Below are positions 240 to 50,065 of a DNA stretch of 64,000 bases, piece by piece. The notes beneath the pieces are model-generated. The model made no database searches and was not told the DNA's origin. It was given only the letters and a program-made list of their open reading frames with translations. Numbering within the stretch: position 1 is the first letter of the stretch; the number at the start of each line of letters is the position of its first letter. Origin of the DNA: an uncultured Trueperaceae bacterium (GTDB taxonomy: Bacteria > Deinococcota > Deinococci > Deinococcales > Trueperaceae). The stretch is from positions 736,001-800,000 of the forward strand of contig CAVSGP010000004.1 of the NCBI GenBank assembly GCA_963727505.1, in the 5' to 3' direction. The position numbers and the translations under genes are program-made.

Positions 240-767
240 TCACCACACGGGCAGATCGGGGTGGTCGGCGCGGCGCCACGGGCTGGGGATCTCGATCCCT
301 TCGCCCGCGAACACCGTCACCCGCCGACCTTCGATCTCGAGCACGACACCCTTCACCTGCTCGGGCCGGGTGAGGGTGTAGAAGAGCTGGTTGAGGCGTC
401 CGACCATCATGGCGCTGCCGCCTCCACGCTCGAAGGAGGCGGTCAGGTCGATGGTGAGCGTGCCGCCGGAGAGCTTCGCGTCCAGCACCTGCGTGTCGGC
501 GGGCACGGCGCTGCTGAGCCCCCGGGCCGCCTCGTCCGGGCTCGGGCCCGCCGCCAGTGCGGCGACGGCGCTCGCGGCCCGGGACGTGGCGTCGCCGCGG
601 CCCGCCCGCCGGTAGGCCGGCGCCAGCTGGAAGCTCGTGCCGTCGGAGGTGATGAAGTAGACGACCGTGTCGGGCAGGCGTTGCAGCGTGCGTACGGTGA
701 TGACGGCGACCAGCGCCAACAGGAGCAGCAGCGCCAACGCCACGACGCGCAGCACCACCGTACGCAC
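240..767 (-). CDS. GerMN domain membrane-anchored protein
   Basis: N-terminal TM helix, then VVYF...ALAAGP...SAVP...TIDLT..F..GGGS...QLFYTLT...V.LEIEG pattern of GerMN; GTG start just after the malic enzyme stop. Confidence 0.8.
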   Translation of the reverse strand: MRTVVLRVVALALLLLLALVAVITVRTLQRLPDTVVYFITSDGTSFQLAPAYRRAGRGDATSRAASAVAALAAGPSPDEAARGLSSAVPADTQVLDAKLSGGTLTIDLTASFERGGGSAMMVGRLNQLFYTLTRPEQVKGVVLEIEGRRVTVFAGEGIEIPSPWRRADHPDLPVW

Positions 768-43799: not shown

Positions 43800-43902
43800 G
43801 GCTCGCAACGTCTGGGGGCCGCGCAGAGCGGCGGAACACGCTCACCGACACCCGTTCCGCTGGGTACGATAGCGACAGTCTCGTCCCGGAGCCACTTTGC
43901 CG

Positions 43903-46866
43903 ATGAAGTTCGTCGCGACCCTCGCCTGCCTGCTCGCCGCGCTCCTCAGCGCGACCGCCTTCGCTCAGACCGCGACGATCGACGTCAACGCACCGCCGGA
44001 CCGGCTGGCGCTGCCGGGGGCGTTCGTGACGCTGGTCTACGTGGTGAAGAGTCCCGTCAGCGGCCAGGCGCAGGTCGAGGTCGCGTCGCAGCACGGGTAC
44101 ACCCTCCTGGCGCCACCGCCCACGGCGAACCTCATGGCCGGCGTCGCGACGCCCTTCGCGGTCACCGTGGAGATCCCGAACGACGCGCCGGCACTGTCGG
44201 TGGACGCCGTGACCCTGACCGTGACGCTAGGCAGGCGTCCAAGCGCAGGGGACGGTGCACGTCACCATCGGGGAGAAGCGCGGCCTGACGATCCAGGCGC
44301 CAGCGGAGGTAGCGGTGTCGGCCGGAACGATCACCTTCACGGTGGTCAACCAGGGGAACGTCGAGGAGAAGGGATCGTTCCTGGTCACGCAGAACGGGAC
44401 GACAGTCCTCGAGCGTGCGCTCGCGCTAGCCGGGGGTGACCGCCAGGCCGTGACGGTCCCTGCAACCAAGCCCGGGTCGGTCCAGGCGACCTTCTCGGTC
44501 GGTGGCAAGGAGCTGGCGCGCGGCTTCACCCGGGTGGTCCAGCAGGGCGTCCCGTCACCGCCGCCGATCCGGCTCCATGCGGACGTAACGGGCTCGATCG
44601 ACACGACCGCGGCGTGGGGCTTCTCCGTGAAGGTGCAGGGGTCGCTCTCGGACTACCTGACGACCTCCGGGGCGCTCTACGTCGATCGACCGCCGCTCGA
44701 GCTCGCTGTCGCTCGATGCGCCCGGTTGGCAGGCGTCGATCGGCGCACTCGGCGGAGCCCCGCTCGGACTGTCGCTGCCGTCCGAGCTGGGGATCCGTGG
44801 GGCCTACAAGGACGGACCCTGGACCGCCGGGGGCGGCGCCACCTGGATCGGCGCCGACCGCTTCGCCGGGTACGCCTTCGGCGGCCGCAAGGACGAGCAC
44901 ACGGTGTACGCCGGCGCCGTCGGCATGCACGCCGGAACGCCCATGGCCGTGCTCTCGGCCGGACAGACCCACAAGGCGAGCACCTGGACGATCGCCGCAA
45001 CGTTGCTCGACGGCTCGCTCTCGGGTTCGGCGGCCGCCAGACAGCGGGACCCCGAGACGAAGGGAACGGCCAACGTCTCGGTCGGCGTCTCTCGGGCTGC
45101 TCACGGACAGCGGGACGCTCCAGGTCAGCGCGGGATACAGCGACGGCCTCGCCAGCCTCTACGGCAGCGCGACCGCGCCGATCGGCTCGCAGGCGGTCGG
45201 GGAGCGCCAGGGGCGGGGCGGTCCTACGGCTCCCGGTGCCGATCGCCGGCAGCCTCTACCTCCATCTGCAGGGGGCACCGACGAGAGCTTCGCCTCCCTC
45301 GGCTACGCTGCGGCCTTGGGCAGCGGGATCCAGACGAGCGACAGCCTCGGGATCACCAACGCCGGCGGGTCACCGGGCGTGCACGCGTCGACGTCGTGGG
45401 CCTACGTCGCTGGCCCCGGGAACACGTTGGGGGCCGATGCCGACCTCATCTACACGACCGGCCGACGGCAGCGTGACGGGGCGCGTCGCGGCGCGCTACG
45501 CCGCGGGCTTCGGCCCTGCCGCCTTCAGCGTCAGCGGGGGCTGGGACCTGGGCCAGGGGACGGTCGGGATGGGCAGCGCCTTCTCATGGGACGGAGGGCC
45601 CTGGAGCCTGCAGGTCAACGGCGACGCCGGGCTGGACACCGTCACGGACGCTTTCAACTTCGGCCTGGGCCTGACCGGGCACGTGGCCGTCGACTTCGAC
45701 GTTCCGGAGTCGGTCGTGCGCGCCACCGGCGGCCGCCGGCTCGGGCACCCTCGAGGGGCTCGTCCACGCCGGGTCGGCAGGGCGTCCCGGGCGTGACCGT
45801 CAGGGTCGGGCCCGTACCGGGTCGCACCGGCAAGGACGGTCGCTTCGACGTCCAGCTTCCGCCCGGCGAAGTCCGGCTGGCCCTCGACCTCATGACCCTG
45901 CCCATCCAGTACCAGGTCGAGGGCCCGCTTGAGCGCACGGTCACCCTCGCCGCCCGGCATACCGCGCACGCCGACTTCCCGGTCGTCGCTTCGGCGGCCT
46001 CACGGGCAGCGTGCTCCTGGACAGCGATGGCAACGGCACGCCGGACACGCCGCCCAAGTCCGGCGGAGGCACCGTCCTCCTCACGACGGGGGCCGAGCAG
46101 CCCGCGCGCCCTCCAGGTCGACGCGAACGGGAACTTCTCGGCTCGCGGGCTGCTTCCCGGCACGGCAACGCTGAAGCTGTCGAATCTCCCGCTGGGCTCG
46201 CAGGTCGAAGGCGCGGACACGCAGACGGTCGACGCTGCGGGCCGGGAGCGTCAGCCACGCCACCTTCCTCGTCGAGCCCGCCGTCGTGAGCGCGCCGGTA
46301 TTCGGCGCCAGCAGCTTCCGGATCCGGTCGGTCGCGACGGAGGTCGCCAAGGTGCCCCCCGGCGCCGCGCCGCTCGTCACCGTGAAGGTGCAGGGGCATG
46401 CCGACGCGCGTGGACGTCGTCGTGAACGGCGCCGAGCCACGCCCTGAAGGGCAAAGCGGCGACACCTGGACGGGCCGCGTGCCGGTGCCACCGGACGCCA
46501 AGAACGGGGTGTTGAGTACCAGGTCGTGGCGACGAGCGGGGCGGCCACTGTCGAAGCGCGACGGTCAGCTCCTGGTCGACCCGTCGGCCGCGGCCGTAAC
46601 TCGGCGAAGGCGAACGGTGCCGGCCAAGGCTGGGCGGCGTCCAGAAGGTGAACGTGACGGTCTACCTGCAGGCGACGAGCGTGAGCTGACATCGCCGTTC
46701 GGTGGTCGGGTGAAGGCTCGGAGAGCGCAACCCGGCCGCTGGACGGCCGACCTCCCGGTCCCCGACGGCACGAAACCGGACATCTACAGCGCGAGCTACA
46801 CCGTCACGACCGAAGACGGTCGCACGCTGACCGGGGACGTGCGGTTCCGGGTCGTCGCCCCCTTGA
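43903..46866 (+). pseudogene. Large exported/outer-membrane usher-like protein, multiply frameshifted
   Basis: Signal peptide MKFVATLACLLAALLSATAFAQ; Ig-like N-terminal domains; Gly/Ser/aromatic alternating beta-strands; C-terminal GVPGVTV…TGKDGRF and VLLDSDGNG beta-sandwich repeats; protein-like sequence hops between frames at least about 10 times. Confidence 0.6.
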
Positions 46867-46890
46867 GTGCTTGGTCGGCTTCGGCTTGCC

Positions 46891-47853
46891 TCAGGGGTTG
46901 GGTTGCGCCGCGTAGGTCGCGGTGAAGCTGTAGGCTCCCGCCGCTTCGCCGCCGTCCACATGCAGCCCGAAGTCGGACGGCGTCAGGAAGGTCACGTAGC
47001 CGCGGTGGCCCGACGTGCTGCTGAAGACGTAGCCATCGGCCTGCGGTCCGCCGAAGATCCGGATGTCGGGCACGCCCAGAGACGAGTTCGGTCGGCCCCG
47101 AGTTCTCCACCACCGTCACGTCGACGCGGTAGCCGGTGGGGTTGTTCGTGGCGACTGCCAGATCGACTGAAGTCGCCGACGTCATCGGCAGAAGATGCAC
47201 CGGTTCGCACGGCCTGGAGGTAGGTGACGAAGTTCGAGAGGGTGTAGTCGAAGTCAACGCTCGCCGTCTGCCCCGCCGGCACAGCCGTCGAGGAGGAGGG
47301 ACACGTACGATGGGATCGTCACCGTGATGGTCGTCGTGACGGAGTCTCGCACCTTGTTCCCGTGGCTCGGTGGGCCGTTCGCATCCCACGCGTGGAAGGT
47401 CACGGTCGTGGTGTAGGTACCTGGCGGCTCGCTGCCGTCGATGCGCAGCCGGTACTCGACCGAGACGTCGGTCTTGTTGACGTCGTGCGTGAAGAGCGTG
47501 ACCGGGATCGTCGAGATGGGCGCCCAGTCCAGTACGATCGGCTCGATGTGCGGCCCCGACAGGGTGATCCGCGCCTCCAACGTCATCGGTGTCGGCGGGG
47601 ACCAAGGGGACCGCGAGACCTCGAGGCTGTAGGCGTTCTTCTTGTCCTGCAGTACCTGGAAGGCGATCGGCGACGTCGGGCTGGTCGGGCTCAGCGCGCC
47701 ACCGACCGCGGCCGCGTACTCGGCCTGGGTGGGCAGGAACTGCACGCCGTTGCTGCAGTCCTTCGGGGGGACGCAGTGGATGGTCTGGGAACCGCAGCTC
47801 CCCCGCCAGGCCGATCGCCACAGCGAGACAATGGGCGCAGAGAGCCAACGCAC
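46891..47853 (-). pseudogene. Two-domain pilin/adhesin-like secreted protein, frameshifted
   Basis: GTG start overlapping the upstream TAG; two domains ending IDGSEPPGTYTTTVTF and VDGGEAAGAYSFTATY; spread over ORFs 47254..48183, 46992..47282, 46796..47848 and 46891..47073. Confidence 0.55.
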
Positions 47854-48622
47854 TACTGCACCTCGTACGGTAGTTGTCCCGGTCAGAAGGCCCCCGCGGG
47901 AGTCTTTGAGGAGAAGCAGAAGGACATAGTAGCCCTTCGGTAGGTCCGGCATCTTGACCGAGATGTCCCGTTCGCTCTCCCTGAGGATGGCGCTACTACC
48001 GACCGAAAGGCTCTGGACAGTATTTCCGGTGGTGTCCCGCACCTCGATCGAGCCCGAATACCGCATCACCGTGTTGCCCTCGTTGGCGACGATGGCGTGG
48101 ACGCTAGAAGCCATCGCGGTACATGTCGGTGAGCTTCGATCCGTTCTTCTCGGTGCCGGCGACGGTGACATAAACGACCACACCGACCCGCTGCCGCATC
48201 GAGACCTGCGTACCCGAAGCCGTTCCCGGCGCCGCGGGCGTCTCTACGAACATCACGGCGTTGTAGGTCCCGGCCAGCATCGGGTCGTTGGGCACCTGGA
48301 TGTTGAGCCGGACTGACTGCTGCCCCGCCCCCGTCATTTCCACCGAATCGCTCGGGAGCTGGATCCAGGACGCGGCGCTTAGGCGACCTCTCCCGGCGCC
48401 AGGTACGTGAGCTGACCGTCTTGCGCCATCGCCCAATCATTCGTCGCCAGGCCGAGCCGTACAGCGTCGGTGCCCGTCCAGATCGCATCGAACGTCGTGG
48501 TAACCGACCCCCCCACGGGGACTGTTGACATCGATTCGCGGTGGCGAGACGCCGATGTCCGCCGCATGCGCGGCGGACATCCAGGGAAACAAGAGTATGA
48601 GGAGTGAGGGGGATCGGCGCAT
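47853..48622 (-). pseudogene. Fimbrial chaperone-like (PapD-like/Ig-fold) protein, frameshifted
   Basis: Signal peptide …AAHA, IGVSPPRI, SWI…V.L.IQVP…GTY.AVMFVE, RVGVVVYV, ANEGN..R..G motifs; ends EVQ-TAG. Confidence 0.6.
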
Positions 48623-48633
48623 TGCTCATCACA

Positions 48634-49190
48634 TCATGGCACGGAGGCCGAGTAGGTTACCGTGTAGGTGTAATCGCCGGGGGTCTCGGTGCCGGTCAGG
48701 CCGAAGCTGAAGTCGGAGCTGTCCGTGATGAGTGTCTGCCAGCTCGGAGCCGTAGTGTTGTTCGTGCCGTTGATCGTCATGGTCGGATTGGTCGTGAGCG
48801 CTGATGTTGAGCATGATCTCGCCCATCACCGTCCCGTCCATGCCCGTACCACTGCCCGCGGAGGTGATAGGCCGTCACTGTGACGTTGCCGGAGGCGTTC
48901 GTGAACCCCTCGAGCGAACCGAAGGCCGTGCTGCTATCCGGCGCCAGCGACACGGTGCCGCTCGTGGCCGCATTGCGGATCTCGGCAACGGTGGGCGTGA
49001 AGCTGACGTCGTAGGTGCGGTACCGTTCAGACGAAGCATGACGACGTACGGGATGTGGACGAGGACGTGTGCTGGACCGGCCATCGATTCGCGCCATTCG
49101 TGGTCGCGATGAAGTCGTCGACTGCGCAAACGACGCGCCGACCGTTCCCAGGAGGAGTGCAGCTGCTGCGATGAGGATGGTCTTCTTCAT
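48634..49190 (-). pseudogene. Major pilin-like secreted subunit, frameshifted
   Basis: MKKTILIAAAALLLGTVGASFAQ signal; Thr/Ser/Gly-rich; C-terminus LTGTETPGDYTYTVTYSASVP-TGA; GGAGGG RBS. Confidence 0.62.
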
Positions 49191-49215
49191 AACGTTCCCT
49201 CCGGATCAAACAGAA

Positions 49216-49290
49216 TCGGCCGGTCGCGCTACTAGCTCCACCTGTCCCAAGCGCCCGAATACAGGATCAGGTTTCATCGCTTCCGAAGGG
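49216..49290 (-). ncRNA. c-di-GMP-II riboswitch
   Basis: Minus strand TCGGAAGCGATGAAACCTGATCCTGTATTCGGGCGCTTGGGACAGGTGGAGCTAGTAGCGCGACCGGCC matches the class II pattern GGAA…AUGA…GGGC(A/G)CUUG…GAG(C/U)UAGUAG(U/C)GC.ACCG; ACCTG/CAGGT stem; GCGCT/AGCGC pseudoknot. Confidence 0.88.
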
Positions 49291-49560
49291 ATCCCCGCCA
49301 GCTCGATTTGGTGGGGAGTTCGTAAGACTGACCGGAGCCTAGCCAGGGCAGACTTACAGAACTCTTAATCGGCGTGCTGTTTGTGGAGTCCTTTACGCGT
49401 CCTGGACGGGTTTGTTGGAAATCCCACAGAATGCGGCTCGCCGCGGCCTCTTCCGATGCGCTGCAGAGATGCCGTCCTGGACGAAGGTTCGGCGTGCGGG
49501 TGCTCCAGCGACGAGAGCAGGCCGTCCGACGGGCACGTGGGTCCCCGAGGACACGGCGCC

Positions 49561-49600
49561 GCACAGCCAGAGCACAGCCAGAGCACAGCCCGAATACAGC
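49561..49600. repeat. 11-bp tandem repeat GCACAGCCAGA (about 3.6 copies)
   Basis: GCACAGCCAGA GCACAGCCAGA GCACAGCCCGA ATACAGC. Confidence 0.8.
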
Positions 49601-49684
49601 GCCGTCGATCCCGCACCCGCCGTGCGCCCGCCCCCTAGCCACACGTTGGCCACCCCGCGCCCACCCCGCGCCTACACTGGAGGC

Positions 49685-50065
49685 ATGAACGACGGGCCCG
49701 AAGCCACACCCCGCGGCGACCGCCCCGGCGACCGCCCTTCCATCCGCCTGGACAACGTCCTCAAGCTCGCCGGCATCGCCGAGACCGGCGGTCAGGCGAA
49801 GCGCATGATCCAGGGCGGGGAGGTGCGGGTGAACGGCACGGTCGAGACGCGCCGCAAGCACATGCTCCACGACGGGGACGAGGTCGAGGTGCAGGGCGAG
49901 ACCTTCGTCGTCGAGTTGACGAGCGAGGACGAGCTCGAGGACGACATGGACGATGTCCTGGACGACGGCCCGCACCCTGCAACGGACACCCCACCCAGTG
50001 GCGCAGCGGAGGAGAACGGGCCCGACGGCGCGCCGGACCCCGACGCTCGCCCACCCCGCACCTGA
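49685..50065 (+). CDS. RNA-binding S4 domain protein (YaaA/YbcJ-like) with acidic tail
   Basis: IRLDNVLKLAGIAETGGQAK..IQGGEVRVNG.VETRR motif. Confidence 0.9.
   Translation: MNDGPEATPRGDRPGDRPSIRLDNVLKLAGIAETGGQAKRMIQGGEVRVNGTVETRRKHMLHDGDEVEVQGETFVVELTSEDELEDDMDDVLDDGPHPATDTPPSGAAEENGPDGAPDPDARPPRT

Follow-up and report, generated by a model that had tools for sequence, protein, structure and literature searches.

In the add adenine riboswitch of Vibrio vulnificus, a P1 helix stabilized by the ligand competes with a helix that masks the Shine–Dalgarno (SD) sequence and the start codon, with no terminator involved. Class II riboswitches for cyclic di-GMP (c-di-GMP) are described as typical of clostridia and deinococcus in PMC9495176. 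According to PMC6366702, the four class II riboswitches of Clostridioides difficile are ON switches that act on transcription; there Cdi-2-4, upstream of pilA1, is presented as an ON switch that serves a surface-appendage operon at high c-di-GMP, with a terminator/antiterminator and a true type IV pilin gene. Tandem class II riboswitches (59 doublets and 9 triplets, mostly in Paraclostridium) and one class II riboswitch that controls a self-splicing ribozyme are recorded in PMC9481103. Here we analyse a leader of the same aptamer family in a 64,000-nucleotide (nt) stretch of DNA (the window; contig CAVSGP010000004.1, positions 736,001 to 800,000) with ~70% G+C, part of a 3.26-Mb genome of 15 contigs. 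We conclude that it is probably a translational ON riboswitch, in which a rise in c-di-GMP would unmask the SD sequence of the first gene of an operon. The host is an uncultured Trueperaceae bacterium (Deinococcota) and its relatives are Trueperaceae, so the clostridial context of the preliminary description, which was made from the sequence letters, does not fit.

A covariance-model check bore out the class that had been proposed for this leader. Using cmscan on the minus strand of the window, we found the RF01786 (c-di-GMP-II) model matched over its full length, model positions 1-84 of 84, with 62.1 bits where the gathering score is 53.5 (E 2e-11), and a search of the whole genome recovered the same match at 49209..49293 (window coordinates are used throughout; Table 1). 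RF01786 was the best of several overlapping matches in clan CL00127, which includes the variant family RF03169; two lower-scoring matches were dropped. The proposal that P1 and the anti-SD helix have the same TCGG in common also stood, and its P1 partner needed correction: by the Rfam alignment and by covariation the partner is CCGA (49219-49216) instead of CCGG. The latter lies just upstream of CCGA as part of a conserved ACCGG junction, which the Rfam model places directly before P1. Three further outer 'P1' pairs in the Rfam match (GAU:GUU, past four mismatches) were rejected as spurious; the corresponding positions hold gaps or non-pairs in most related leaders.

The complementarity on which a translational mechanism would depend was confirmed as first described: TCCCTTCGGA (49291-49282) and TCCGGAGGGA (49205-49196) form ten antiparallel pairs, one of them G-U (U49286-G49201). 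The ATG at 49190 stands 6 nt past the GGAGGG ribosome-binding site contained in the second strand. The duplex between the 22-nt 5′ block and the SD block has an energy of -19.9 kcal/mol. Only 7 of 2000 shuffled 5′ blocks and 14 of 5817 22-mers from the window minus strand pair at least as strongly; the complementarity between anti-SD and SD is beyond chance. The gap between aptamer and ATG, earlier put at about 27 nt, is 18 nt by the Rfam boundaries and 25 nt when counted from the last canonical P1 pair, the latter close to the claim. A scan of 46700-49700 found no terminator-like site on the minus strand, in agreement with the earlier statement that none lies between aptamer and ATG.

To compare leaders, we used two collections. 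A DNA search of 41 related genomes yielded five usable orthologous leaders (G004, G003, G007, G006 and G019); that of G008, cut by a contig end, was left out. With the window counted, both 10-nt strands are invariant in 6/6 orthologous leaders; the linker between P1 and the SD strand varies in length as well as in sequence. The window leader is 97% identical to that of G004, without an indel. The wider search was for a pattern made of the conserved 3′ part of the aptamer followed by GGAG and a start codon within 6-32 nt. This pattern occurred in 63/363 genomes of the order (by family, with the window genome excluded: f1 42/127, f3 7/23, f4 13/68, f2 0/125 and f5 0/19), and a reversed-pattern control gave 0 among the matches listed. 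From the loci found, 71 distinct leaders were extracted, 69 of them with at least 100 nt upstream, and 38 of these 69 were kept for having a 5′ strand ending in CGGA or CGGC together with an SD strand of the form [CA]CGG(G)AGG. After L033 (poor pairing in register, with a run of 0) and duplicates were removed, 35 Trueperaceae leaders remained and make up alignment A2.

Across A2, helices P1, P2 and P3 of the aptamer are paired in 86.5% of cells, and 11 pairs show two-sided changes (74 such cells). Their covariation score of 0.263, against 0.112 in shuffles, was reached by 0/500 shuffled alignments. The pairing between the P3 loop and the 3′ region, which we take to be the family's pseudoknot position, is complete in the window copy (5/5 pairs) and is kept at 5/5 in 68 of the 69 related leaders through four covarying sequence types. 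By sequence and covariation, the element is a genuine class II c-di-GMP riboswitch and would be expected to bind c-di-GMP.

The SD helix (A2 columns 4-16 with 98-110) carries covariation on par with that of the aptamer helices in the same alignment. Paired cells reach 84.1% against 75.2% in shuffles, cells with a two-sided change number 43 against 18.2, and the covariation score is 0.272 against 0.141; 0/500 shuffles reached the real value in each of the three measures. Sliding the 3′ partner by 1-3 columns lowers the score to 0.07-0.11. Individual pairs change on both sides, as at 8-106 (CG 15, GC 9, UA 6, UG 1, other 4) and 6-108 (CG 8, GC 7, UA 4, AU 3, GU 1, other 12), and within the fibre-gene group the tenth pair is U-A in the window, A-U in L053 and G-U in L067 and L075. 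The base in column 12 belongs to both helices: it forms UG 31 and CG 4 with its SD partner, and UA 31 and CG 4 with its P1 partner in column 85. Its nucleotide is thus compatible with two partners, as a switching strand requires. Since the same 5′ base covaries with both the P1 and the SD partner, both of these mutually exclusive pairings are under selection.

These comparisons suggest the following course of events. In the absence of ligand, UCCCUUCGGA would form the 10-base-pair (bp) helix with UCCGGAGGGA, burying the SD sequence ahead of the ATG; this sequestering helix would enclose the rest of the aptamer, in which P2 and P3 could stay folded. Binding of c-di-GMP would lock the short P1 (UCGG:CCGA) beside the pseudoknotted binding core. 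With P1 locked, the switching strand could no longer hold the SD sequence, and ribosomes could start translation at the gene that heads a secreted fibre-like operon. The ligand is expected to favour P1 and so free the SD sequence because P1 belongs to the ligand-bound consensus fold.

Folding energies place the sequestered form well below the aptamer form. The ligand-free minimum-free-energy (MFE) structure of 49328-49170 lies at -51.2 kcal/mol with the SD helix formed and an unpaired probability of at most 0.002 over 49204-49197, and the leader with the Rfam aptamer pairs enforced lies at -29.5 kcal/mol, a figure that includes no pseudoknot, tertiary or ligand terms. The sequestered, OFF form would therefore be the ground state. 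As duplexes, the SD helix amounts to -16.9 kcal/mol and the P1 core to -4.3 kcal/mol; with the SD helix so much the stronger, the choice between them is probably made during transcription or driven by ligand binding energy. The energy of ligand binding has to contribute to switching ON, and the order of transcription probably contributes too, because the P1 3′ strand would emerge before the SD strand.

Several observations weigh against an ON switch. Within the SD helix, the seven innermost pairs hardly vary and were in part fixed by the selection filter, so the covariation evidence is limited to the outer pairs (columns 4-8), where the variation of this helix is seated and which the filter did not touch. 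The 35 leaders belong to roughly three paralogous groups (a fibre subunit and two kinds of lipoprotein), which makes them less independent than the shuffle statistics imply. L101, a related leader without a GGAGG, fits the scheme poorly; the whole-leader fold z-score is only -0.56; this assembly shows frameshifts in the regulated genes; and a search for RNA runs that contain the stretch found none. The nearest-neighbour gap of ~22 kcal/mol, from which pseudoknot, tertiary and ligand terms are excluded, favours the sequestered form, so switching at equilibrium is not guaranteed. Finally, the SD strand could replace the P1 3′ strand, with a 15-nt bulge, while the ligand still binds, and there would then be no ON response.

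In that last case the 10-bp helix would be a long surrogate P1 with the stretch from CCGA through the linker bulged out, and the ligand would stabilize the closed form or leave access to the SD sequence unchanged, giving an OFF or neutral switch. Some features agree with it: the CCG of the P1 3′ strand recurs in the SD strand, which would make the top three junction pairs identical; the SD helix encloses P2 and P3 in the RNAalifold structure of seven leaders (the six plus G267); and its duplex is ~12.6 kcal/mol stronger than P1. We nevertheless regard such a switch as very unlikely. CCGA is invariant in 6/6 orthologous leaders though the adjacent linker varies, and in A2 it covaries with the shared 5′ base (UA 31, CG 4), so that the true P1 is under selection. 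The conserved ACCGG junction stands directly before P1 in the Rfam model, and the validated class II switches in PMC6366702 are ON switches.

The large energy gap between the two states would also suit an SD helix that acts as a damper, either constitutive or triggered in some other way (for example by temperature or a protein), with the aptamer working separately through Rho termination or mRNA stability. The terminator scan of 46700-49700 on the minus strand came up empty, which leaves Rho or RNA decay as routes, and a conserved hairpin, P0, adjoins the switch. To this explanation we give scarcely any credence: in every one of the 35 leaders the nucleotides of the P1 5′ strand also serve as anti-SD, a hallmark of a coupled switch, and the linker (10 nt here, 2 nt in L094 and L100) is too short for a separate platform. 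The ON switch thus remains the reading that we favour.

Hairpin P0 lies directly 5′ of the switching strand, and its pairs are kept through two-sided changes in the RNAalifold structure of the seven orthologous leaders; perhaps it serves as a 5′ stabilizer or fold guide. Hairpins resembling P0 precede many related leaders. Further upstream, a consensus sigma-70 scan of 46700-49700 found no promoter. Conserved blocks consisting of AAGAGTTC (49366-49359) and TAGGCT or TATGCT stand upstream of two riboswitch loci of this genome, the one in the window and the one at G000:C9 upstream of 145503. They are possibly a shared promoter for another sigma factor, as judged from their conservation.

Table 1. 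Features of the riboswitch leader and of the adjoining genes, in window coordinates.
Feature	Position	Strand	Basis or remark
c-di-GMP-II aptamer (RF01786)	49209..49293	-	Rfam covariance-model match and helix covariation
Switching strand UCCCUUCGGA	49282..49291	-	Whole 10-mer is the anti-SD; its UCGG is the P1 5′ strand
P1 5′ strand UCGG	49286-49283	-	Within the switching strand
P1 3′ strand CCGA	49216..49219	-	Rfam alignment; pair of columns 12 and 85 covaries
Pseudoknot 5′ strand GCGCU, P3 loop	49250..49254	-	Pairs with AGCGC 49230-49226
Pseudoknot 3′ strand AGCGC	49226..49230	-	Pairs with GCGCU 49254-49250
Linker, P1 3′ strand to SD strand	49206..49215	-	Variable in sequence and length among 6 orthologues
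SD strand UCCGGAGGGA; GGAGGG at 49202-49197	49196..49205	-	Read directly
ATG start codon, gene 1	49188..49190	-	Position conserved in orthologues
Upstream hairpin P0	49292..49318	-	MFE fold and RNAalifold, 7 orthologous leaders
Conserved blocks AAGAGTTC (49366-49359) and TAGGCT (49341-49336)	49336..49366	-	6-way alignment; putative promoter
Gene 1: Sec-secreted, immunoglobulin-like (Ig-like), fibre-subunit-like protein	48637..49190	-	Split over at least 3 frames here; tblastn pieces in frames -3, -1 and -2
Gene 2: periplasmic protein of two domains, called chaperone-like only in automatic names	47853..48622	-	tblastn pieces, two frames
Gene 3: 318-amino-acid (aa) secreted protein, two copies of the gene-1 domain	46891..47853	-	Three 1-nt insertions here
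Gene 4: convergent, secreted, ~990 aa, CarboxypepD_reg domain	43897..46865	+	8 frame pieces here

The first gene of the operon had been called a pilin. Type IV pilins are marked by a prepilin leader with an N-terminal methylation motif and a hydrophobic alpha-helix. We rejected a type IV pilin for gene 1, whose N-terminus, MKKTILIAAAALLLGTVGASFAQ, is a Sec-type signal ending AFA-Q in place of a prepilin leader and whose predicted structure is all-beta after the signal peptide. Neither the open reading frames (ORFs) of the window, nor the orthologues, nor 99 members of the gene-1 family matched a pilin or N-methylation family. With a likeness to chaperone-usher folds that is weak (Z at most 6.3), the label was not borne out, and 'pilin' is at best a loose functional guess.

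Intact orthologues of gene 1 (185-201 aa) were found in G004, G007 and G019, and its family comprises 164 representatives at E <= 0.001. None of the 99 members scanned matched a Pfam family, and the orthologues gave no curated match. A first structural model from 6 sequences (mean predicted local distance difference test, pLDDT, 55.4) was too poor and was replaced by one from the 99-sequence alignment, which is all-beta with a pLDDT of 87.5. Its nearest structural neighbours are CupE (Z 6.3), Csu (6.0), the PapG pilin domain (6.0) and CfaE (5.5), scores so low that they may reflect no more than a beta-sandwich held in common; a Foldseek search of the PDB with the model found nothing at E <= 0.001. 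Between the window genome (G000) and G004, whose leaders are 97% identical, the coding sequence of gene 1 diverges sharply just past the signal peptide (49122-48700 versus L012/L023). Diversifying selection on a surface-exposed protein, or allele exchange in it, could account for such divergence.

Gene 2 matched no Pfam or NCBIfam family over cut-off and has no sequence relative in the PDB; its nearest ESM Atlas clusters are automatically named PapD-type chaperone (score 0.96), which serves as a lead only. For gene 3, hits of ~300 aa in two stretches were found, and a weak match to NF058581 (25 bits) lies below that family's cut-off of 55. In G004 the three operon proteins are intact at 201, 255 and 318 aa. 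Intact copies of gene 4 encode 989 aa in G007 and 996 aa in G019; these ~990-aa convergent proteins match Pfam PF13620 (CarboxypepD_reg) only and no usher family at E <= 0.1. We describe the operon as a secreted fibre-like system without a known family, made up of a subunit, a chaperone-like protein and a two-domain subunit.

The association between riboswitch and operon does not depend on how the RNA was found. Through gene 2, and not via the RNA, we located 12 loci, 10 of which carry an upstream clan CL00127 aptamer on the strand of the genes (9 RF01786, 1 RF03169); the exceptions are L096, with only 662 nt available upstream, and L098. The link is robust. The gene-2 relatives come from Trueperaceae and one Thermaceae, all metagenome bins.

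Frameshifts in the regulated genes, which the preliminary description had missed, raise the question of whether the operon still functions. Genes 1-3 and convergent gene 4 (43897-49190, both strands) are interrupted by single-base indels, nearly all of them +1 insertions. Against the intact G004 operon, the window is 75.5% identical over 2325 aligned columns and departs within 2.3 kb by 9 insertions and 2 deletions, each of a single base. We compared the window with contigs from relatives that are 90-99% alike, none of which spans the whole stretch; among the matches listed, the extra base at 47086, 47161, 47196 and 47284 is missing from contigs 95-99% alike, from 3 runs in 2 studies. The number of frame switches per 2 kb was tried as a measure of assembly quality and rejected as too noisy; a region that it flagged holds intact ORFs of 637 and 958 aa.

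An intact leader might thus stand before a dead operon as a relic, with genes 1-4 being pseudogenes, an explanation that we find rather unlikely. It would account for the splitting of genes 1-3 and gene 4 over several frames, for the indel count against G004 and for the G003 orthologue, which also appears frameshifted. The near-uniform +1 insertions, a G+C content at third codon positions of ~0.9 within the pieces and the contigs that have no extra base speak against decay, as does the indel-free leader. Assembly indels are also plausible given that the relatives are metagenome bins. We consider assembly error more likely than decay by a fair measure.

The genome as a whole holds 10 RF01786 matches, of which 8 exceed the gathering score. 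Tandem matches ~100-190 nt apart occur in three places outside the window (G000:C4:708550-710156, C9:145230-145503 and C2:272031-272277; L001-L010), and the C4 place holds a third, weaker match. Downstream of several tandem copies lies a GGUUGCAUC segment that is complementary to GAUGCAACC within the aptamer itself, a different expression platform. The anti-SD design of the window leader recurs before two lipoprotein families (L056-L081) in several Trueperaceae genomes, one with LLAACSQ followed by Ig-like repeats and the other acidic with LLAACG. This distribution suggests a small c-di-GMP translational regulon of envelope proteins.

In Thermaceae, 11/11 leaders examined with a close SD sequence precede homologues of the same subunit family. 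There, in 6 of the 10 leaders whose 3′ part was folded, the C-rich P1 3′ strand is predicted to pair with GGAGG, an anti-SD wiring that is different and that, as modelled, also predicts an ON switch. In the Thermaceae bin L102, the homologous operon is preceded by RF03169 (c-di-GMP-II-GAG; 63.9 bits, 635-722, plus strand), and a divergent RF01786 copy lies on the opposite strand (417-502, minus strand).

In the literature searched, with the original class II description set apart, we found nothing on the function of class II riboswitches in Deinococcota beyond their occurrence. A wider reading, which we hold only tentatively, is that the riboswitch marks an undescribed surface-fibre system of Deinococcota without a known family, wired to c-di-GMP in Trueperaceae and Thermaceae by translational class II aptamers with two anti-SD wirings. 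Its parts would be the Ig-like subunit, the chaperone-like two-domain protein, the double-domain subunit and the large convergent envelope protein, and the N-terminal HxVxVxIP segment of the subunit could act as a donor strand. If this reading is true, the locus would offer the first translational class II platform together with a new lineage of chaperone-assisted fibres. Apart from that reading, the leader draws attention to a conserved secreted-fibre operon, so far unannotated, as a probable main output of c-di-GMP in both Trueperaceae and Thermaceae. The compact ~105-nt design, in which one strand would choose between P1 and the ribosome site, makes a handy model for translational control by a class II aptamer and a possible part for c-di-GMP-responsive reporters.

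Against the archaic chaperone-usher systems, the likeness is partial. The structures closest to the gene-1 model, CupE of Pseudomonas aeruginosa (8cio) and Csu of Acinetobacter baumannii (7zl4), have Z of 6.0-6.3, below the level that tells kin from proteins sharing a common beta-sandwich. Like their subunits, gene 1 is predicted to be secreted and Ig-like with a disordered N-terminal segment, and its neighbour is automatically named a PapD-type chaperone; unlike in those systems, there is no SCPU, PapD or usher Pfam match, and the large partner gene is convergent and matches CarboxypepD_reg only.

As a riboswitch, the aptamer is a plain RF01786 member, and release of the SD sequence by P1 formation is a textbook translational ON design, so the gain is one of detail rather than principle. 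Modestly new are a covariation-backed translational platform, its use in three paralogous Trueperaceae regulons and the unannotated operon that it would control. Where Cdi-2-4 of C. difficile has a terminator/antiterminator and a type IV pilin gene, the Deinococcota leader has predicted SD sequestration, no terminator and a Sec-secreted protein without a known family. In contrast to the tandem c-di-GMP-II riboswitches, this one is a single aptamer, with the three close RF01786 pairs lying elsewhere in the same genome. In design it resembles the add-type translational ON purine riboswitches, in which P1 is likewise set against an SD-masking helix with no terminator. Its aptamer and ligand bear no relation to those of add; here the P1 5′ strand would do the masking, in a predicted helix that encloses the whole aptamer.

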